DNA of 53,608 nucleotides from a virus (Duplodnaviria > Caudoviricetes): IMG/VR virus record IMGVR_UViG_3300032093_000184, positions 1 through 53,608 of that record. One strand, written 5' to 3'. The position numbers and the translations under genes were made by a program. The notes beneath the pieces are model-generated. The model searched no databases, had not been told where the DNA came from, and saw only the letters and a list, made by a program, of their open reading frames with translations. Below, one piece after another: positions 9,986-36,639 of this stretch (position 1 is its first letter; each line of letters opens with the position of its first letter).

Positions 9986-12900
9986 ATGGCTAAAGCCGGG
10001 TTGAGTTTCAGCAGCCCCTTGTATGGGGGCACAGATACTGACGTATCACGGTTTGCCACCGCAGAATATATGGGGAATCCTGCTGCAAGCTCTGGGCTTA
10101 ACGGCATCGGGGGGACTTCGCTTGCTAGTATGGCAGCGCTGACTGAGCAGATTGTGAAGTCAAGCCAGTTCGAGATGCCGACGTTGAAGAATCCTCCGGC
10201 CATTGCGTTCAGCCCATCACAGAAGAAGTTGTTTGTACAAGGCCAAGAGTTTGCGGCTGATGACGCTACTCGTGCGCTTCAGTCTGAATCTTTGCTACGC
10301 GGCCCTTCTACTGCAATGCCGCAAGGCGGCGACTGGGTTCCGCTGGATGAGGCCGCGTATTCTCAGTACCTTGACTCGATTAAAAATCCCAGCATGGGTC
10401 GCCTTGCCAAGAAGAACTTTGGCATTGGTGTTGACAACATGCAGTTGCTTGCTGGTCGGGCACTACAACTGGGTGGCGCTGAACAACTTGGCGGGTCTAT
10501 TGTCGAACAGCAACAGGAAGATTTAGGGAAAACCCTACCATTCCAACGCGAGTTCACGGACATTGGCTCTAAGCCATACGGTCAAAGCCGTGGTGTTCTT
10601 GACTGGTTTGTAGCCAACCTTGCGCAGCAAGGGCCGAACTTGGTGGAGTCCGTAGTGACTGCCGCCGCAGGCTTTGCCGCTGGTACTGCTACTGCTGGCC
10701 CTCTTGCCAGTGTCCCCGGTGCGCTTGCAGCCTTGGCTGGTAAAGCAGAAGCCAAGCAAGCCATTCTTGCTGCGGCAAAAAAATATGCAGCAGGTCAAGC
10801 AACCAAAGAAGAACTCAAAATCCTAAGTAACGCCGCTGGTGTTTTAGGTGCAGCGACTACTTCACTGGCACAGAACTACGCAACTGGCGCTGCTGACATC
10901 TATGGTGAGCAACGTGACCAAGGGGTTGGCGCAGAGGATATGCGTGCCCGTGTCAATGCGTTGATGGGTGCTTTCCCTTATGCAGCGTTGGAGTCCTTAC
11001 CTGAATTTATGCTTGCCAGCCGAGTGCTTGGTGGCGGTAAAGGTATTGGCTCAAGCTGGGGCATGGCTCCCGGCGCTACACGCTTGCAACGTGGTGCTGG
11101 CTATGCTGGTCGTGCAGCAGTCGGCGGTGTTGCTGGCGGTACGTTAGAAGGACTTACTGAGACTGGTCAGGAAGGGTTGCTCCTTGGCATATCAGAACAA
11201 GACTTCTCTAACCCTGAGAATATAAACCGCTTGATTAACTCCTTTGCCGCTGGCTTCGGAGTGGGTGGCCCGATTGGTGCTATCGCCAATTTGAAAGGTA
11301 CAGCACCTGCCAACATCCTTACTGGGGAAAGTACTGATCCCACTGGTAAAGCTACAGGCACTGGTCTTGCTCCATACAATCCACCTCCTGCACCCCCCGG
11401 TCGTCCGTTCACTGATGTGCAGTTCATGGGGGCTATTCCTCCTGAACCTCCTGCACTTGGTGGCCCAAGCCCAACTACGCCACAACTTCCCGGCCCTACT
11501 CCTCCTGTATCCCCAATGGGTGGGCCAGTCATTATGGCTGGCATGGGGCCAAACGCTGCGGATGTCACGCGGCAAGATGTTCTGTTGCGTCAGCAGGGTA
11601 ACGTCCCGCCCGGTGCAACACCCGGCTCACAAGGCGTGCTGGATATTTTCGGTGGAACTATTCCTGCTCAGGAGTTGGCTGCACGTATGCAGCCACAGCA
11701 ACCACTCCCCGGCTTGCCTGCGCCGTCTGCTCCCCCCGTGGTCGATCCTCGTCAGGGTGCATTGCAGTTCGGTGGCCCAGCCCCTCAAGCTCCTGCTAAC
11801 CCAATCTTGGCGCAGCGGATGCAGGCGGCTCTTGCGTCACAACAACGTGCACAAGAATTCCAAGCTGCGCAAGCACAGCGGGCCGCCCAAGAGGAGGCAA
11901 TCAAACAGCAACAACTTGATAGATTACAGAACGAGGCTCGAATCCAGCAGCAGTTGGACTTGATGACGCAATCTCAGCAGCCTGCTCCGCAGTCAATGCC
12001 GATGCGTCCGATCCCTGTTTCTCAACCACAACAACTCCCACTGTTCAAACGTGGTGAGTTACCCCGTCCTTCACGGGCTGAGGGATTGCGTCGTGGCGTA
12101 GGTATGCAGACACCTGCGACACAGACGTTGACTATCCCTCCCACCGCTGGTGAATTCCAGCGTGCTGGACAAGGCATCCTGTTTAATCAACAGGGTCAGC
12201 CATCTATGCAGGCACTTAAGAGTGCAGGCAAGAAACAACCACTGCCCAAGCCAACGGTGGCAAAAGGCGTTACTCAGGCAAAACCTACGGGTAAACCCGT
12301 AACTGCCGTCACCGTGGCAAAGGCCGCGTCCAATCTGAAAAAGGGAGCACCCGATGCCACTCAAAAAGGGAAGCAGCAACAAGGTAGTGTCAGCCAACGT
12401 AAGCAAGATAATGCGGGAGTACAAGGCGGGGGGCAAGCTGGGAACCAGCCCACGACCCAAGTCCAAGGCGGCGGCACTCAAGCAGGCGGTGGCGGCAAGT
12501 CTCTCCAGCGCGGGTCGCAGCAAACCCAAAAAGTAACACCCGCAACAACAGCCCTTAAGAAAGGGTCTGAACCAAAAAAAGTCGAGGCGGCAAAACCCGC
12601 CGCCAAACCAAAGGTTGAGAAGCTGAGTCCTGCCGAGGCATGGGAGGACAGGAAACCAGAGGGCGGCGTAGCGTACAGCACGCTTTCAGATGCGCAGAAG
12701 AGACGCTGGGCAACTGAGAATTACTACGACCGTGCCACCATGTCGTTGGCTGATGAGATTAATGCTCAGGCTATACCGCTACCTGCTGAAGAAGAACTGG
12801 CAGACTTGTCTTACATGGAATTGTTGGATGAGGATATTGCTACGGCTGAGTCCACCACAGATGCAAGTGCGTTCCGTGATGCGATTGAGAACATCATGTT

Positions 12901-15900
12901 CCATGCCTACTTTGATACTGACTCCAACAATGAGAAAGCTGGTGTCATTGATAAGGCGCAGATGTTCTTGCTTGAGACTGGCTTTACCGAAGATCAGCGT
13001 GGCATCATGGACACCGCATTGCTGGATGTCGTCAATGACCGACTGGAAGTCGGGGCTGCTTACACCCGTGGTAATCTAAAGGGCACACTAAAGCCTTGGT
13101 TTACCTATGCGCAGATGCGCAACTTGCTCCCAAGCATTGGATCAAAGCTCATTGGGTTGTCCGACACGCAAGTGGCTGAGTTGTTGCAAGCTCGCCAGAT
13201 CAGTGAGCAAAACGTACCTGTATCTGTTTACAAGAAGTACAAGACCTCGCTGCCTGCTGGTGAGTCAGTTGTCAATACCAAGAAGGTCACCTCACTCAAC
13301 CGCATTGTTGACCAGTCTGGTGCAAAACTGGCAAACTTCATCCGCGATTTAGTAACCCGCGTTAGGGAAATCCCTACGCTGACCAAGGAAGTGGTGTTTG
13401 GTTCTGAGCGTTTTGCCAACATCAAAGCACTGACCAAGCAGTTGTACAGTGAACTCGATGAAGCTGGCCGCAACTACATGCTGCCTGATGGAAGCAAAGT
13501 CAAAGACTACTTCAACGACAAGGGTGAGGCAAAGCTCATCAAGTCTGATGGTCGCTACATCCTAAGCCAAGTTGAACTTACTGAAGAACAGCAACGTGCC
13601 CGTGAAGAAGAACGCCGTGCTGAGTTGCGTGCATTAGGTGAAGCAGCCGCAGCAGAGTCAAAGGCAGAGCAAGATATTATCAACGCCCGTAAGCGTGGTG
13701 CACGTGGTAGCGAAACTGTGCAGGATTGGGATAAACCCGAAGGTAACTTCTACCGTGATGATGGCACGCCAATGGGTTCTGCTATCCCACTTGGTCGTGT
13801 GAAGTTGTTGGTCAAAGGTTTCTTGGCAAAGCTCAAGGTCAAACCTACTGTCCATGTGTACGCCAATGTTGCTGACTTGCAGGCTCGCAATCCTGAGTTG
13901 TATCAGCGTGCCGCTGCTGCTCGTAAGCAAGGTGACTTCGACACAACCAATGCCGTGGGTTACTCCTTCGGCCCTGAAGTCATCATCTTCTCCGACTTTG
14001 TTCGTACTGAACAACAGTTGAAATTTGTACTGGCTCACGAAACCATTGGTCACTTTGGTTTCAAAGGTGTGATGGGTCAGTCTGAATTGAACAAGGTACT
14101 GAATCGTATATATCAAACTGACCCTGATGTGCAGGCCGCAGTTGACGCAATGGTCGAAACCCAAGGAATGGATAGGCTGGAAGCCATAGAGGAATATCTG
14201 GCTGACAACGCTGCTGACCTAGATGTATCAATCATCGCAAGGTTGTGGAACGCCTTGAAGAACGCCCTGAACAAACTTGGCTTTAGCTTCAAAGACGACG
14301 AAGCTCGCCAGCTTGTGAACCTTGCACGCCGCTATGTGCGTGAAGGCAGCACGGGCAACTTCTTCAGCGCCTCATCCTTTGTGGGCCACATGGAGGACAT
14401 GGAACAAACAGTAGCAGACGGTAAATACGCACGTAATTTTGCTGGCAACATCGGCTCACGAGGCATGGCAATGAACGCCTTGAATCGTAGGCACGGCCCC
14501 GGTGCTGGTATGTTTGGGTCGATGGACGCCTTCCAGAAAGGGCTGTTCGGCAAGACAGGAGATGTTGGTGTAAACGTAGGCAAGATACTTGAGAAGGTAC
14601 AGACCCTCGACAACATGGCTCGCAAGAGCTATGGCCTCAATCAGATATTCCGTATCTTTGAACAACGAAGTCAGAAGGCTCGCGCTCTACTCTCCAAGTA
14701 CTCACGCTACATGGCGTTCACCCACACACCACGTGTGTTTGGATTCGGTGGCGGCGTGTCTGAGGAGGAGAAACAACAAGCTGGGGAACTTGCTGCATAC
14801 GCTGCGCTGTTCAAGTCACGCCAGTTGACTGATGAGTTGATGGAGTCATACGGCTCCATGATTACTAAAGACGCAATGGGTAATGTCACTGTTGACCCAC
14901 GTGTGCGCCAGTTGTTAGAGAAGGCAGGCACTGTGACTGCGGAAGAATTCCGCAAGGGTTTTGATGTAGAACTCGGCACTGGTGAAAGAATCAAGTACCA
15001 GTTCAATGTTGATGAGAACAGCCCAGTGTGGCGTGTCTACACTGAGATGCGTGAGACAGTAAACGACGCAGCAGTAGATTTGCTGCTATCAAACTATGAA
15101 GCATCTCAAGCAGAACAGCAACGGGTGTTCAATGAACTCGCTGGTATGAAAGGACTCAAGGCTGAGTTCTCTGCACAAGACCTTGCTGCTATCCGCAAAG
15201 TAATTGAGATGTATCAGAACATCCGCTATGGTGGTAGCCGCATTGCAAACGCTTCCGTCGAAGTACAAAAGGGTGCAGACCAGCGCTCTGAGAAATTCAT
15301 CTACAACTTTGGTCGTGCGCTATTCAATGACGATGTGTTTGACGCATGGATGAAGAACCCACGTATCTCTGGTGAGATGCTCAAAGATTTTGAAGAGTTT
15401 CAGAAGGCTGAGTACGACGATATTCGCGCCGCTATCCCCGCAATTCGTGACAAGATTCGTAACAAAGAGCAAGCCTTTGCAATTCAGAAGGCTGTGCAAG
15501 ACATCTTCTTGTTTGATTTGCAGACACGCAACGCGGAATTCTACGCAAAGCGCACCATCCTTGGCTCATACGTTCCGTTCAGCCGCCGTGGTGAGTACCA
15601 AGCTAGGGTGGCAGCGTTCGATGCTCAAGGTAACCCAGTGCGTTTGGATGAGAACATCCGTGACGCCATGCCCTACTTCCAGTTTGAGACTGAGAGTGAA
15701 GCAACCGCTGCACGCGAGGCATTGGAGAATGAGTTCGGCAATGGGCAAGAGTGGATTCTTAAAGATGAGTACGGCGCAGAGATCAAAGTAACTCTGCGTG
15801 CAGAATCTTCAGAAGCCGCAGTCAGCCCATCTTTAACTGAAGCCGTGAACTTCAATGAGTTCATCTATGTGCTGAACCGCTTGAACGTAAACATCACACC

Positions 15901-17965
15901 AACCGCACGTGAACGTATTGTCAAGACACTGACGAATCAAAACGACCGTGCTCGTAAGAACTTACAACGTAGTGGTAATCCCGGATGGGACAGCGACATC
16001 GTGCGTTCTGTGTCTGAGCATCTAGAGATGGTGGCTCACGTTGCCGCCAAGAAAATCTACCGCCACCGTCTTGATGACATCATGCTCAACAATTCGTCAT
16101 GGCTTGGTGACCCACAGAAGCTCAAGGATTTGCAGGCTGCGATTGATACAGCAACTACTGACGGGCAGCGTGTTAGAGCGCAACGTGCGTACGATGAGTA
16201 TGCGTTCATGTACAAGTACATGGCTCCTAAAGCTGCTGGCGTTACGGTCAATGGTGAACCTACACTGGGACAAGGTGAGCGCTATCGTGAAGAAGCCAAG
16301 AAACTTATTCGCTGGTACAACGACTCATCCAATATTAACGACAGCACCGAAGATATGTTGTCGGGGGAAGCTGGCTCGTTCCTAAAACTAATCACAGTGT
16401 TGATGCAGTTGGGTGGTTCAGTTGCATCCGCAGCCGTGAACTTTGTATCTCTGCTTACCCACAGTACACCATACCTGTCCTACTACAACGCCAAGCGTGG
16501 TTATGGCGGCGGTTACGGTGAGGCCAAAGCCGTGACCTCCCTCTACCGTGCGGCCCTTGATGCAGGCAGTTACAAGCTGGAGGACGCTGGGTTCTTGAAT
16601 GACTTGCTGGTCAATGGTGGGTACGACAAGTATGGACTGACAGAGGATGAGACTAAGTTCTTGTTTGATGCCACTGAGCAGGGCACATTGCAGGCGGCTC
16701 AGTTCAACGCACTGGTGGGTACAGCACGTGGCAAGGTGTTTAACAATAAAGCACAAGCAGGTATTAAGGCATGGATGGCTATGTTCTCCTATACAGAGCA
16801 GGCCAACCGCCGAATCACTGCACTGGCAGCGTACCGCCTTGAGAAAGAACGTGCACTGTCACAAGGGTTGAGCGAAGAACAAGCAATCGCTGAGGCTACT
16901 GAGGCAGCACGGATTGCGGTCAACACATCGCAAGGTGAGTACGCCATGTTCAACCGACCAGAGATGGCACGTGGCAACGTAGCTCAATACATATTCATGT
17001 ACAAGCAGTTCGTAATCATCACCGTCCAACTGCTGCGTAACATGCCAGTTCGTGGGCAGTTGTTGATGCTTGGCTTACTGTTGATGATGAGTGGTCTGAA
17101 GGGCATACCATTTGCTGACGACCTCGCTGACATTGTTGACACAATCGCGCAGATGCTCGGCCTCAAAGTGGCAAGCATCGAGAAAGCTACTGCTGAATGG
17201 GTTGATAGTGTGGCCCCGGGAATGTCGCCGTATGTCATGCGTGGTTTGATTGACCGTGCAGTCGGTGCGACTGTATCTACCCGCTTGGGTATGGGCGATC
17301 TAGTTCCGTTGACTGGTGCTCTTAAAGCTGGCGCAGACCCTGCACGTGAGATCGGTGACTTTGCTGGCCCAGTGTTCAGCGGTATCAGTGGGCTGGTATC
17401 AATGGCAGGTGGTTTGGCTAAGTATGGTGCTGAGGTAACGGGCCTGCGTGATGACACTACATCCCTCAACACATTGATGCGAGAGTCCCCAATAGCTGCG
17501 CTGCGGTCTGTCGGAGACAGTTTTGCGTACCTGTCAAGTGGTGACATCACGAACGTACGTGGTCAGATGGTTGCCAAGGATGCACAAGCGCACGTAATTC
17601 TTGCTCGACTACTCGGCTTCTACCCAGCGATAGCCACTCAGCAGAACGATATTGTTCGTATGTCCAAGCAAGTCAATGAATACGGCAAGGCGGTCAAAGC
17701 AGAATATGTTGCTGCGTATGTGAAGGCTCGGGCTGCCGGTGACCAAGAGGCAGCAGATAATATTGCATCCGCAGTAAGCCAGTGGAATGAGGATTCCAAG
17801 GGTACAGGTTTGGAAGTGACTAAGTTCTTGCAGTCTGCCAATCGTGCATATCGTGAGGCTCAGCGTCCAACTGCGTTGCGCTACATGAAGTCAGCGCCAA
17901 GGGCTATGCGTCCTGAGACCATAGAGTTGTTGAGACTCTACGGACTAGACGATGAGATCATGTAA
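9986..17965 (+). CDS. Giant internal virion / polyvalent protein with a zincin-like metallopeptidase domain
   Basis: 2659 aa; LAHETIGHFG (HExxGH) at 14036-14053 with downstream EEYLA; C-terminal helical region (E..NR..LAAYRL, NRP, FMYKQF) typical of large podophage ejection proteins. Confidence 0.8.
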   Translation: MAKAGLSFSSPLYGGTDTDVSRFATAEYMGNPAASSGLNGIGGTSLASMAALTEQIVKSSQFEMPTLKNPPAIAFSPSQKKLFVQGQEFAADDATRALQSESLLRGPSTAMPQGGDWVPLDEAAYSQYLDSIKNPSMGRLAKKNFGIGVDNMQLLAGRALQLGGAEQLGGSIVEQQQEDLGKTLPFQREFTDIGSKPYGQSRGVLDWFVANLAQQGPNLVESVVTAAAGFAAGTATAGPLASVPGALAALAGKAEAKQAILAAAKKYAAGQATKEELKILSNAAGVLGAATTSLAQNYATGAADIYGEQRDQGVGAEDMRARVNALMGAFPYAALESLPEFMLASRVLGGGKGIGSSWGMAPGATRLQRGAGYAGRAAVGGVAGGTLEGLTETGQEGLLLGISEQDFSNPENINRLINSFAAGFGVGGPIGAIANLKGTAPANILTGESTDPTGKATGTGLAPYNPPPAPPGRPFTDVQFMGAIPPEPPALGGPSPTTPQLPGPTPPVSPMGGPVIMAGMGPNAADVTRQDVLLRQQGNVPPGATPGSQGVLDIFGGTIPAQELAARMQPQQPLPGLPAPSAPPVVDPRQGALQFGGPAPQAPANPILAQRMQAALASQQRAQEFQAAQAQRAAQEEAIKQQQLDRLQNEARIQQQLDLMTQSQQPAPQSMPMRPIPVSQPQQLPLFKRGELPRPSRAEGLRRGVGMQTPATQTLTIPPTAGEFQRAGQGILFNQQGQPSMQALKSAGKKQPLPKPTVAKGVTQAKPTGKPVTAVTVAKAASNLKKGAPDATQKGKQQQGSVSQRKQDNAGVQGGGQAGNQPTTQVQGGGTQAGGGGKSLQRGSQQTQKVTPATTALKKGSEPKKVEAAKPAAKPKVEKLSPAEAWEDRKPEGGVAYSTLSDAQKRRWATENYYDRATMSLADEINAQAIPLPAEEELADLSYMELLDEDIATAESTTDASAFRDAIENIMFHAYFDTDSNNEKAGVIDKAQMFLLETGFTEDQRGIMDTALLDVVNDRLEVGAAYTRGNLKGTLKPWFTYAQMRNLLPSIGSKLIGLSDTQVAELLQARQISEQNVPVSVYKKYKTSLPAGESVVNTKKVTSLNRIVDQSGAKLANFIRDLVTRVREIPTLTKEVVFGSERFANIKALTKQLYSELDEAGRNYMLPDGSKVKDYFNDKGEAKLIKSDGRYILSQVELTEEQQRAREEERRAELRALGEAAAAESKAEQDIINARKRGARGSETVQDWDKPEGNFYRDDGTPMGSAIPLGRVKLLVKGFLAKLKVKPTVHVYANVADLQARNPELYQRAAAARKQGDFDTTNAVGYSFGPEVIIFSDFVRTEQQLKFVLAHETIGHFGFKGVMGQSELNKVLNRIYQTDPDVQAAVDAMVETQGMDRLEAIEEYLADNAADLDVSIIARLWNALKNALNKLGFSFKDDEARQLVNLARRYVREGSTGNFFSASSFVGHMEDMEQTVADGKYARNFAGNIGSRGMAMNALNRRHGPGAGMFGSMDAFQKGLFGKTGDVGVNVGKILEKVQTLDNMARKSYGLNQIFRIFEQRSQKARALLSKYSRYMAFTHTPRVFGFGGGVSEEEKQQAGELAAYAALFKSRQLTDELMESYGSMITKDAMGNVTVDPRVRQLLEKAGTVTAEEFRKGFDVELGTGERIKYQFNVDENSPVWRVYTEMRETVNDAAVDLLLSNYEASQAEQQRVFNELAGMKGLKAEFSAQDLAAIRKVIEMYQNIRYGGSRIANASVEVQKGADQRSEKFIYNFGRALFNDDVFDAWMKNPRISGEMLKDFEEFQKAEYDDIRAAIPAIRDKIRNKEQAFAIQKAVQDIFLFDLQTRNAEFYAKRTILGSYVPFSRRGEYQARVAAFDAQGNPVRLDENIRDAMPYFQFETESEATAAREALENEFGNGQEWILKDEYGAEIKVTLRAESSEAAVSPSLTEAVNFNEFIYVLNRLNVNITPTARERIVKTLTNQNDRARKNLQRSGNPGWDSDIVRSVSEHLEMVAHVAAKKIYRHRLDDIMLNNSSWLGDPQKLKDLQAAIDTATTDGQRVRAQRAYDEYAFMYKYMAPKAAGVTVNGEPTLGQGERYREEAKKLIRWYNDSSNINDSTEDMLSGEAGSFLKLITVLMQLGGSVASAAVNFVSLLTHSTPYLSYYNAKRGYGGGYGEAKAVTSLYRAALDAGSYKLEDAGFLNDLLVNGGYDKYGLTEDETKFLFDATEQGTLQAAQFNALVGTARGKVFNNKAQAGIKAWMAMFSYTEQANRRITALAAYRLEKERALSQGLSEEQAIAEATEAARIAVNTSQGEYAMFNRPEMARGNVAQYIFMYKQFVIITVQLLRNMPVRGQLLMLGLLLMMSGLKGIPFADDLADIVDTIAQMLGLKVASIEKATAEWVDSVAPGMSPYVMRGLIDRAVGATVSTRLGMGDLVPLTGALKAGADPAREIGDFAGPVFSGISGLVSMAGGLAKYGAEVTGLRDDTTSLNTLMRESPIAALRSVGDSFAYLSSGDITNVRGQMVAKDAQAHVILARLLGFYPAIATQQNDIVRMSKQVNEYGKAVKAEYVAAYVKARAAGDQEAADNIASAVSQWNEDSKGTGLEVTKFLQSANRAYREAQRPTALRYMKSAPRAMRPETIELLRLYGLDDEIM
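12354..12536 (+). CDS. Small basic protein nested in the +1 frame of the giant ORF (DUF6496-like)
   Basis: SD AAGGGAG at 12341-12347, 6 nt before ATG; MPLKKGSS..VSANV..MREYKAG..KQAVAASLS.AG resembles a common stand-alone phage family. Confidence 0.75.
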   Translation: MPLKKGSSNKVVSANVSKIMREYKAGGKLGTSPRPKSKAAALKQAVAASLSSAGRSKPKK

Positions 17966-34623: not shown

Positions 34624-34908
34624 TTAAGCCAACTTAGTAATAGTCACCTTGCTAGGTGCTTTACGCTCAGGTAACAGAGCAACGTAAGGCTTACCAAAAC
34701 GATCACACATAAGTATCGGTGTATCACCAGTTACCTCAGGCTTGAAAACCCTAGGTGTCAACTTGTTCTTCTTCGCAACTTCCAAGATAGTTGTGTAAAG
34801 TTCTTGTGCATTGTCAGCATTGAAGCGACCCTCTGCATCAGGTTTTACAACGACTTCACCTTTGGTGTTGGAGAAGATGGAAACATTACCCTTAAAAATC
34901 ATTGCCAT
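34624..34908 (-). CDS. Early protein, paralogue A
   Basis: AAGGAG SD; aligns end to end with 36032-36331. Confidence 0.8.
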   Translation of the reverse strand: MAMIFKGNVSIFSNTKGEVVVKPDAEGRFNADNAQELYTTILEVAKKNKLTPRVFKPEVTGDTPILMCDRFGKPYVALLPERKAPSKVTITKLA

Positions 34909-34971
34909 GATTGGCTCCTTGTAAAGTAGGTTACTGAAAGTGCGGTAAGCAAAACGCCGACCGCTGAGGGC

Positions 34972-35000
34972 AGACTACCGCCGACCCGAAAAAACGTCAA
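34972..35000 (-). promoter_or_regulatory. Early sigma70-like promoter PE2
   Basis: TTGACG-17 bp-TAGTCT. Confidence 0.7.
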
Positions 35001-35030
35001 GTGCGGCCTCGTTCTCCAAGAGAATAGGTG

Positions 35031-35440
35031 TGTAAAGTATTGTTTAAGGCTGTAAACAATCTAAAAGATGTTGCTAACACAGGTGAACAATCTGTGTCAA
35101 GTTAGGGTGTTACAGATTGTTTGAAAAGGGTTGAAACCCGCATGAATACTGGTGTTGTGGGGTGTGTCAAGTTAAACAATCTAAATAATCTGTGGTTTTA
35201 GAAATGAAGTTGCACACCGCAAAAATAAAAATTTGTAGAGAGCATCTTGCTGAGGAAAGGGTATATAAAAAGTGTAGATTATACAGATTATATAGATTGT
35301 CTCTCTATGGATATTATTTGTAAGTGGTTGATTCCATTGGCTTTTTTAATTGTAAAGTGTAATGTTATACCATCTAAAAAGGGGTAAATTGCGTCAAGTT
35401 ATTTACAGATTGTTGGAAATTCACAGATTATTGTAAAGTT
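35031..35440. repeat. AT-rich non-coding array of AGATTRT/AYAATCT and TGTMAAGT repeats (candidate replication origin)
   Basis: Ten copies of the heptamer, at 35056, 35087, 35114, 35176, 35185, 35276, 35285, 35294, 35407 and 35425. Confidence 0.75.
35321..35333 (-). promoter_or_regulatory. IHF consensus site
   Basis: Minus strand AATCAACCACTTA fits WATCAANNNNTTR. Confidence 0.55.
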
Positions 35441-35603
35441 TCAACAGGTTATAGCCACGAAATTACAGGGAAAGTGTTCACATTGCGTGTAAATCAGGCT
35501 TTAAAGCGAGCCGCGACCCCCCGACGTATGGTTTATATAAGCTATATAAGAGGAATGATCCCCCTTGGTCGTGCTGTGTGGTGTGTGTAAGGTTTTTTAA
35601 GAC

Positions 35604-35628
35604 AAAAAAAGACCCGCTTTCGCGGGCC
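35604..35628 (-). terminator. Intrinsic terminator
   Basis: GGCCCGC-GAAA-GCGGGTC-TTTTTTT. Confidence 0.85.
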
Positions 35629-35633
35629 AGTGG

Positions 35634-35732
35634 TTAGAACAGTGCCATTGCAAGCCATAACAACACGTAAAGTATTGGTGCGATCAGTGCGGCGGCCAGT
35701 ATTGGGTGCTTCTCACAGAATTTTTCCATCAT
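35634..35732 (-). CDS. 32-aa membrane peptide (not in the ORF track)
   Basis: GGAG SD; MMEKFCEKHPILAAALIAPILYVLLWLAMALF. Confidence 0.65.
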   Translation of the reverse strand: MMEKFCEKHPILAAALIAPILYVLLWLAMALF

Positions 35733-35739
35733 TTTCTCC

Positions 35740-35766
35740 AGAAAGAGAGCCACTTTCGTGGCTCTC
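35740..35766 (-). terminator. Intrinsic terminator-like hairpin
   Basis: GAGAGCCAC-GAAA-GTGGCTCTC-TTTCT. Confidence 0.65.
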
Positions 35767-35770
35767 GGGG

Positions 35771-35968
35771 TTAGATCATCTTCAACTTCACCATCTCAGG
35801 CGGTATGCCATCGTCGATCAGTTCTTGTTGGAACCTTACAGCGGCGGCGTCTCGCTTGAAGCATTGAAAAAAGATACTGTCTCCAGCTTGCCAGCGAACT
35901 TGAAACCGATTAGGTTCTTGTTTGCGGGTTTTGCGTGTGCCTTTGTAGGGCAGGATGGTTACCTTCAT
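35771..35968 (-). CDS. Early hypothetical protein, 65 aa
   Basis: Start moved to ATG 35968 (GGAG SD); the longer ORF-track start would run through the terminator. Confidence 0.7.
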   Translation of the reverse strand: MKVTILPYKGTRKTRKQEPNRFQVRWQAGDSIFFQCFKRDAAAVRFQQELIDDGIPPEMVKLKMI

Positions 35969-35989
35969 AGTTTTCACTCCAGTATGGTT

Positions 35990-36021
35990 AAAAAAGAACC
36001 CGGGCACTGTCACTGCCCGGG
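35990..36021 (-). terminator. Intrinsic terminator
   Basis: CCCGGGCA-GTGACAG-TGCCCGGG-TTCTTTTTT. Confidence 0.85.
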
Positions 36022-36031
36022 GTAAAGGCTC

Positions 36032-36331
36032 TTAAGCCAACTTGGTCACTTTAGGACGGTTGGGCTGGTTGCCGTCTCGCTTTGGTAACACCGCGATGTA
36101 CGGGTTGCCGTAACGATTTGCCAACAAGACCGCTTCCGTTCCGCCTTCAGTTAAGAACAGCGAGTACTTGTTAATACTTGCTTTGTTCTTTTTGCCCAAC
36201 TCCAACATCTTTTGATGCAGAGCCGTTGCCTGAGTGCTGTCCCATGCGCCTTCGGGGTCACGCTTGAGAGCGATCTCACCCTTAGAGTTAAGAACAACGG
36301 AAACCTTCCCTTCAAAAGTTCTATTTGACAT
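36032..36331 (-). CDS. First early protein, paralogue B
   Basis: GGAGG SD; aligns with 34624-34908. Confidence 0.8.
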   Translation of the reverse strand: MSNRTFEGKVSVVLNSKGEIALKRDPEGAWDSTQATALHQKMLELGKKNKASINKYSLFLTEGGTEAVLLANRYGNPYIAVLPKRDGNQPNRPKVTKLA

Positions 36332-36353
36332 AGAATCCTCCAGTGTGACCTAT

Positions 36354-36365
36354 TGTTAAAGAGCA
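36354..36365 (-). promoter_or_regulatory. boxA antitermination element
   Basis: TGCTCTTTAACA, identical to the E. coli rrn boxA; preceded by the hairpin GGTAGG..CCTACC. Confidence 0.75.
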
Positions 36366-36420
36366 GGCGGTAGGTCAATTCGCCTACCCTATCAGCGGTG
36401 CGATCACCGCCGACAAATTC

Positions 36421-36449
36421 AGACTCTCACAACTAGACAAAAACGTCAA
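36421..36449 (-). promoter_or_regulatory. Early sigma70-like promoter PE1
   Basis: TTGACG-17 bp-GAGTCT; same layout as PE2. Confidence 0.6.
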
Positions 36450-36639
36450 GTATGCCGTTTTCACTAGGGAATAATGACCACAATGTTCAAAGGGTTATTT
36501 GTTTGGCTCGGCGCTTGTCAAAGCGGGAGGGGGGCACATGGACACGCGAGCGGACGCCCCGCCCCAGTTGTAGTAAACCTCATAAAGCAAGACCCAAAAA
36601 AAGGATCGTGTAAAGTTAGCTAATTTTTTCGGCTACCCC

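Follow-up and report, generated by a model that had tools for sequence, protein, structure and literature searches.

Why should a phage place a ribosomal antitermination signal in front of an early gene? The question is raised by one IMG/VR virus record of 53,608 bases, estimated to be 98% complete and analysed here over its whole length (the window), whose minus strand carries, in the leader of its first early gene (gene 1), the 13-nucleotide (nt) word TGCTCTTTAACAA, that is TGCTCTTTAACA(A), at 36365..36353. A preliminary description of this DNA had recognised the word as the E. coli rrn boxA, and the 13-mer is indeed identical to the boxA of the E. coli rrnA operon. The same description had proposed that the host Nus complex tunes read-through of the early genes behind it. 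The boxA observation is confirmed and lies far beyond chance, and the element is most likely, to judge from its sequence and setting, a working host-factor boxA, as had been predicted. The plus strand of the window carries terminase, portal and virion protein genes, and the minus strand encodes, from ~36.4 kb down to 18 kb, small early proteins followed by an ATPase, a DNA polymerase, an exonuclease, a helicase and a primase-helicase.

A single boxA in the early leader

Both the 12-mer and the 13-mer occur as a single exact copy in the 53.6-kb genome, with ~0.006 exact 12-mers expected in 2 x 53.6 kb, and matches with up to two mismatches stand at chance level (7 in the window vs 5.8 expected; 31 of 100 shuffles reached 7). 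The word agrees exactly with the published rrn-type consensus, given as UGCUCUUUAACA and as GYTCTTTAANA in the accessible parts of PMC5725501 and PMC13753749. Conservation in relatives was the check set in advance by the preliminary description, and boxA was found to be retained. The relatives are the 43 viral contigs that carry a homologue of gene 1 at 51-100% protein identity; many of these loci are near-duplicates and their counts are not independent events, with a span that reaches down to 51% protein identity. Within 200 nt upstream of gene 1, the best match to the 13-mer had no mismatch in 16 loci, one in 17, two in 6 and three in 3; the remaining locus is truncated, with 28 nt of upstream sequence, and a boxA-like word is present in 42 of the 43 leaders. 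GYTCTTTAANA is matched perfectly in 28 of the 43 loci and in 18 of 31 distinct upstream sequences. Outside the leaders, 220,844 nt searched on both strands held one other match (0.84 expected), at a palindromic contig end in L021, where positions 1-83 form a perfect inverted copy of the segment from boxA to the ribosome-binding site, probably an assembly artefact. All five near-complete relatives (51-58 kb) have exactly one boxA site, always in this leader (reversed-pattern control, 0), and in the leader alignment the boxA columns are invariant and the arms of the adjoining hairpin covary.

The elements of the leader, in the order of transcription, are as follows.

36449..36421, minus strand: early promoter PE1, sigma-70-type, with -35 TTGACG (36449-36444), a 17-nt spacer and a TG-extended -10, TGaGAGTCT (36429-36421)
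36415..36390, minus strand: hairpin 1, 5'-terminal stem-loop of 11 bp with loop AUCG, predicted fold
36389..36361, minus strand: hairpin 2 form B, GGGUAGGCG (36389-36381) with CGCCUGCUC (36369-36361), minimum-energy and covarying
36388..36369, minus strand: hairpin 2 form A, GGTAGG (36388-36383) with the decoy arm CCTACC (36374-36369)
36365..36353, minus strand: boxA
36352..36346, minus strand: TAGGTCA, identified by eye, possible third helix with TGACCTA (36377-36371, in the form B loop) that would enclose boxA
36341..36337, minus strand: ribosome-binding site GGAGG, 12 nt past boxA and 5 nt ahead of the ATG
36331..36032, minus strand: gene 1, open reading frame (ORF) of 99 amino acids (aa), an early protein without assigned function, with 43 relatives

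The leader, gene and terminator elements named in the preliminary description were all present on the minus strand, displaced by a few bases at most. BoxA lies ~50 nt downstream of the conserved predicted promoter TTGAC-17-nAGTCTG, for which the predicted start in the window is ~36414. The boxes TTGAC[AG]-17/18-nAGTCTG are common to the leaders of the relatives with constant spacing, and the TTGAC-type promoter pattern has two sites in the window vs 0.21 expected. A generic consensus promoter scan of the window did not list PE1, since its -10 GAGTCT matches TATAAT at A2 and T6 only, and the promoter assignment therefore rests on conservation in relatives, together with one metatranscriptome contig that ends at 36407, running into an Illumina adapter a few bases inside the predicted start, which is a hint only.

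The E. coli rrnA leader consists of the boxB hairpin, 2 nt, TGCTCTTTAACAA, ~15 nt and the GT-rich boxC TGTGTGGG, bearing out the earlier statement that a hairpin followed by boxA is the rrn order. The window shares with it the identical 13-nt boxA, a hairpin directly 5' to it and a position some tens of nt past a promoter, here a predicted one, of sigma-70 type; it differs in the lack of a GT-rich boxC, in the translated gene, rather than structured rRNA, that follows boxA, and in a hairpin that overlaps boxA by 5 nt, the rrnA hairpin ending 2 nt before it. The lambda nut order is boxA, then boxB. Like nut, the window has boxA on an early phage transcript near its promoter, but here the hairpins precede boxA, the boxA is the full rrn consensus, and no N-like arginine-rich disordered protein was found; neither Pfam nor PHROGs returned one, as the preliminary description had surmised, and the product of gene 2, the next gene downstream, has a basic tail but a folded domain.

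The closest known arrangement is that of T7 and its like. T7 has CGCTCTTTAACAA at 812-824, 62 nt past the A3 start and 100 nt ahead of gene 0.3, between a small hairpin and the R0.3 hairpin; the T3 word (L054, 781-791) also lies between A3 and R0.3. SP6 (L055, NC_004831) has perfect boxA words at 656-666 and 926-936 and a one-mismatch copy at 1536-1546; there TTGACA-17-TACATT is followed by a hairpin abutting TTGCTCTTTAACAA (656-666), 45 nt before the gene 1 ATG, and the second perfect copy precedes gp2. In T7, according to the introduction of PMC3709561 (which cites Savalia et al. 2010), Gp2 is no longer needed once the boxA element behind the early promoters is mutated; the mutations act like a loss of antitermination, and without Gp2 it is boxA-antiterminated host transcription that interferes with infection. 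This T7 statement was the one account of boxA in lytic-phage early leaders found in the literature examined, and no mention of an SP6 boxA was found in open-access papers.

The window shares with T7 the layout of a virulent podophage in which sigma-70-type early promoter(s) are followed by a hairpin, (C/T)GCTCTTTAACAA and the first early gene, and in which no N-like protein is present. Virulence of the window phage we infer from the lack of relatives among 185,579 species genomes, no search for an integrase or repressor having been made. Long-leader relatives (L017, L019, L023, L035) also have, like T7 with R0.3, a large hairpin between boxA and the gene. In the subclade of L017, L019, L020, L023 and L035, boxA stands 91-100 nt upstream of the ATG, and the gap is filled by a near-perfect ~60-80-nt hairpin resembling the T7/T3 R0.3 (an RNase III site). 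The window, in contrast, has no long RNase III-type hairpin between boxA and the gene, its boxA being 12 nt away from the ribosome-binding site and 21 nt from the ATG. The partner of the 5' half of that boxA is an upstream strand that can also pair with a decoy, and a stretch of 800 nt holds three terminator-like sites; the genes are unrelated to those of T7, the terminase is of another type, and neither a phage RNA polymerase nor a Gp2-like function came to light in the window. The terminase reaches a top identity of 43%, to Pseudomonas phage Rollin, and a near-identity DNA search of cultured phages gave no match to the window, whose DNA was found in runs labelled as freshwater, lake-water or fungus metagenomes. 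The clade appears to depend on the host polymerase throughout: neither a T7-type RNA polymerase nor a sigma factor nor an N4-type virion polymerase was detected in the window, where Sigma70_r2 was absent with a valid control; the PF00940 (phage polymerase) search of the window also returned nothing, but its control was silent too, making it uninformative. The candidate antitermination system is thus not a new kind, its arrangement being shared with T7, T3 and SP6; virulent podophages with an N-independent boxA downstream of early promoters read by the host polymerase were already known, and the window clade is an unrelated further case. T7 is therefore not alone in employing, without N, the ribosomal antitermination signal of its host, this signal being found also in an unrelated clade of uncultured freshwater phages.

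Viral contigs were scanned for TTGACA, 45-75 nt and GCTCTTTAACAA, with a complete scan for the reversed 12-mer as control. Promoter-proximal boxA was found in at least 119 viral-contig stretches (L056-L174) vs 50 for the reversed control. Among the matches listed, 77 of 121 were non-coding by a crude test (no stop-free frame of at least 100 codons) vs 7 of 50 in the control, and the base before G was C in 84 and T in 25 (109 of 121), being evenly spread in the control; 8 of the 121 carried the promoter signature of the clade, and there were 110 distinct contexts. These figures suggest that promoter-proximal boxA is common in viral contigs, part of the sites probably being lambdoid nut sites, which were counted together here. 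A hairpin ends right at boxA in many scan matches, e.g. L064, L104 and L060. Promoter-proximal boxA could thus serve as a simple sequence marker for early transcription units read by the host polymerase in unannotated phage genomes, and the boxA variant as a hint to the host, since variants should follow the rrn boxA of the host; TGCTC, CGCTC, TTTTC, GGTTG, CGTTC..G and TACTC are the variants of the phages here. E. coli having the very boxA of the window, the leader lends itself to direct tests in E. coli reporters.

Proposed antitermination or repression of gene 1

The reading that we favour, and to which we would give an even chance, is that boxA is a NusB/NusE loading site that makes some of the early host-polymerase complexes resist Rho and, in part, terminators. 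From the sequence, uniqueness, conservation and position of boxA and from the conserved terminators behind it, we infer both the factor binding and the effect on termination. Host RNA polymerase would initiate at PE1, the 5' hairpin and hairpin 2 would fold as the RNA emerges, and boxA would emerge ~50 nt into the transcript, where NusB/NusE with NusA, NusG and SuhB would give some of the elongation complexes an rrn-like form that is less prone to pausing, withstands Rho and in part runs through hairpin terminators. Complexes so modified would express gene 1, pass T1, the middle hairpin and T2, and could traverse a ~700-nt untranslated C-rich, G-poor spacer toward the remaining leftward early and replication genes; unmodified complexes would halt at T1 or T2. 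BoxA would be used as in T7, with no N-like phage protein needed. The features concerned are the following.

36021..35990, minus strand: T1, intrinsic-terminator-like, with an 8-bp GC-rich stem (36021-35999), a 7-nt loop and TTCTTTTTT, the T-run extending to 35990
35968..35771, minus strand: gene 2, ORF of 65 aa
~35766..35738, minus strand: weak terminator-like middle hairpin, GAGAGCCAC-GAAA-GTGGCTCTC, followed by TTTCTGG (hairpin plus TCTTTCT)
35732..35634, minus strand: hydrophobic ORF of 32 aa, with tblastn matches in 11 of the 43 loci
35628..35604, minus strand: T2, strong intrinsic-terminator-like, with a 7-bp stem (35628-35611), a GAAA loop and TTTTTTT
35000..34971, minus strand: PE2, second PE-type promoter, TTGACG-17-TAGTCTG, ahead of a gene 1 paralogue and with no boxA behind it
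34908..34624, minus strand: gene 1 paralogue of 94 aa, 40% identical to gene 1

In 37 of the 43 sequences a terminator-like hairpin with a T-run comes no more than 60 nt past the gene 1 stop, with stems that differ, and a second, stronger terminator-like site lies ~440-800 nt past the gene 1 start in relatives. T1 is absent in 6 of the 43, four of which have a non-consensus boxA, numbers that are too small and drawn from sequences that are not independent. Past T2, the spacer transcript has C 0.28 and G 0.13 at 35599-35522 and C 0.33 and G 0.10 at 35170-35093; such C-rich, G-poor untranslated RNA is of the type on which Rho acts, so protection by Nus factors and boxA would matter there. According to the accessible text of PMC13753749, boxA is sufficient to prompt formation of the rrn complex, which shifts NusA off the exit tunnel and blocks Rho. 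The preliminary description had cautioned that rrn-type complexes do not pass intrinsic terminators by themselves, a caveat softened by PMC6614801, where, in the part consulted, the rrn complex with SuhB suppressed the intrinsic terminator tR' of lambda in vitro relative to polymerase alone.

Contigs from RNA libraries, in which DNA carry-over is possible, bear on a few of these features. Gene 1 is covered by such contigs in X15, X17 and X18, and one X17 contig crosses T1, joining gene 1 to gene 2. As a weak hint, contigs of two studies end at 35775 and 35777, a little short of the middle hairpin. In X15 the contig depth is 59.8 over gene 1 vs 3.7 over gene 2, which would fit efficient termination at T1, contig depth being unable to rank genes. 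No RNA-library contig from four runs covered 34998-35211, and X15, X17 and X18 had none in 35000-35775, which is not evidence against read-through.

Several observations weigh against antitermination as the function of this boxA. Fifteen of the 43 relatives are off the gamma-proteobacterial consensus; L012 and L018 deviate at C4, the position at which, according to the accessible part of PMC5725501, mutation inactivated the suhB boxA. Host-specific boxA variants could explain the off-consensus relatives. Among cultured phages related by terminase, none of five has a leader boxA, the single match lying inside a coding sequence. The GT-rich boxC of rrn is not present, TAGGTCACACTGGAGG standing past boxA instead; boxA is just 12 nt from the ribosome-binding site, a setting that in E. 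coli suhB leads to repression instead of antitermination; and PE2, which directly heads the long downstream gene run, has no boxA. Finally, the minimum-energy folds of 12 of 21 distinct leaders, that of the window among them, place the start of boxA (3-5 nt) in a helix, with a probability of being unpaired of at most 0.3, and NusB/NusE would face competition from that helix.

The short distance to the ribosome-binding site opens a second explanation, which we regard as unlikely but as the most serious of the alternatives, namely control of the kind described for suhB (Baniulyte et al. 2017, PMC5725501). Nus factors at boxA would loop the leader to polymerase, block the ribosome-binding site and repress translation of gene 1 when free Nus factors are abundant, tuning gene 1 and perhaps setting it apart from its boxA-less paralogue. 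The window has, as suhB does, a perfect GYTCTTTAANA less than 50 nt upstream of a start codon and near the ribosome-binding site. From the end of its boxA it is 12 nt to GGAGG and 21 nt to the ATG, which falls inside the 50-nt range by which the accessible part of the same paper defines Nus-regulated genes; the gap in E. coli suhB is given there as 6 nt, with repression persisting when inserts of up to 100 nt were present. That gene 1 alone has a boxA, the paralogue behind PE2 being without one, also fits. The gene behind the window boxA is, in contrast to suhB, a phage early gene with no rut-like composition inside and with terminators and a long untranslated spacer downstream. No C-rich, G-poor stretch that would suit Rho was found in gene 1 RNA (C/G 0.6-1.2 across 36340-36029, composition being a proxy), the first early gene of a phage would be expected to need strong expression, and the T7 precedent favours antitermination. 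The two modes are compatible and could coexist, and sequence cannot decide between read-through and repression of gene 1. Of the original proposal of early read-through tuned by host Nus factors, the conserved Nus-type element is thus well supported as a sequence feature, and the reading placed on it is supported in part, the layout also suiting repression of the suhB type, which had been overlooked.

Alternative helices around boxA

The 99-nt leader folds at -34.8 kcal/mol (z = -3.2), and none of 200 shuffles was as stable. All 21 distinct leaders have, in their minimum-energy folds, a 5' hairpin that begins with the first transcribed bases, with stem sequences that differ. Hairpin 2 had originally been drawn as GGTAGG/CCTACC; this helix (form A) can form, but the minimum-energy helix is instead GGGUAGGCG/CGCCUGCUC (form B), whose 3' arm ends in the first 5 nt of boxA. 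In an alignment of 11 distinct leaders from the subclade of the window, form A was paired in 100% of cells with two pairs changed on both sides (-5.4 to -10.5 kcal/mol), and form B in 99% of cells, also with two pairs changed on both sides (6 cells; -11.8 to -16.8 kcal/mol). The two forms are mutually exclusive, since the 5' strand is common to both. Within form B, C-G and U-A have replaced each other repeatedly between closely related leaders, and in L041 a change from A-U to G-C tracks a T-to-C change at boxA position 1. The possible third helix is changed on both sides in L022 (GACCGG/CCGGTC) and is weaker in L003, L004 and L009, as read by eye with alignment columns shifted. In other subclades (L017, L019, L035, L042 and L043) boxA is unpaired, and the masking helix is thus confined to some members of the family. 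In the minimum-energy fold of the subclade with TTTTCTTTAACAA (L030, L034, L036, L037 and L039), UCUUUA in the boxA-like word lies opposite UGGAGG in the ribosome-binding site, joined by weak and mostly wobble pairs.

The paired alternatives would allow the leader to act as a kinetic RNA switch that gates access to boxA, an idea that we hold to be doubtful, slightly more so than suhB-type repression. The strand GRGUAGGYG would pair with the decoy arm CCUACUC, which is transcribed first (form A, -5 to -10 kcal/mol), or alternatively with the 5' half of boxA, CRCCUGCUC (form B, -12 to -17 kcal/mol). With form A in place boxA would be single-stranded and NusB/NusE could load; with NusB/NusE scarce, strand displacement to form B would hide boxA and polymerase would stay sensitive to terminators. 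Read-through from the immediate-early cassette to later genes would then report the free pool of Nus factors, and hence the growth state of the host. No description of any boxA as a sensor of the Nus-factor pool was met in the literature examined, and the alternative decoy and boxA helices offer a testable model for regulated access to a boxA.

The same pairing invites the view that the word has nothing to do with Nus factors and belongs to a phage RNA structure or to a site for a protein of the phage, for instance as 3' arm plus tail of a hairpin for pausing or processing or as the target of an early phage protein, its identity with boxA being convergent or incidental. Its first 5 nt are the 3' arm of the covarying hairpin 2 in one subclade, the third helix may enclose it, and no Rfam family was matched (none at gathering scores over the whole window; sub-threshold noise only at 35550-36480). 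We nevertheless consider this improbable: TTTAACAA, which stays single-stranded, varies no more than the paired portion does, the word is retained where the hairpins differ or leave it untouched (the five loci named above in which boxA is unpaired), and it recurs behind sigma-70-type -35 boxes in viral contigs above the reversed control, with the C or T preference before it.

Least probable is that abundant early leader RNA titrates NusB/NusE from the host rrn operons and so aids host shut-off, with secondary effects on phage transcription; competition for host factor by a transcribed boxA has been described in lambda and an exact rrn boxA stands here behind an apparently strong promoter, but there is one boxA copy per genome, and a 5' half paired in the stable fold would make a poor sponge.

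Genes and spacer downstream of the leader

Antitermination by NusB/NusE, as favoured above, had originally been suggested to be possibly helped by the product of gene 1, for which we found no support. Gene 1 has no Pfam family and one weak PHROG match of unassigned function; tblastn found no homologue in cultured phages, and there was none among the 185,579 species genomes. Its AF2 model (pLDDT 84) gave no PDB fold match at E <= 0.001 and, in BFVD, just two unnamed viral proteins, and an arginine-rich motif was not found in the protein. In many relatives (L012, L014, L017, L022, L044 and others) a paralogue of gene 1 lies ~1.2-1.4 kb downstream behind its own PE-type promoter; boxA is present at the first copy only.

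A helper role of gene 2 is likewise without support, the protein having no family and no informative fold match. Homologues were matched by tblastn in 23 of the 43 loci, at positions that vary relative to gene 1; they form a family of 52-91-aa proteins with a conserved basic tail (PRKxRKQE) and the motif RFxVKW...FKRDxAA. The AF2 model (pLDDT 83) combines the basic N-terminal tail with a small beta-beta-alpha-beta domain, which, on an unsupported impression, may resemble an AP2-type DNA-binding domain; a PDB sequence search with gene 2 gave only artefacts on designer repeat proteins.

Elsewhere in the window no tRNA genes were found, and a 2659-aa ORF at 9986-17965 matched no Pfam family and no PDB sequence, its C-terminal 500 aa alone matching the ends of two PHROG families without annotation, one of which spans 3431 positions. 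The ~700-nt non-coding spacer between T2 and PE2 (34900-35620) contains at least 10 copies of ACAGATTGT(T) in both orientations, several of them just upstream of ACTTGAC -35-like boxes on the minus strand (~35397, 35172 and 35102), and looks like an operator or iteron array for some DNA-binding protein.

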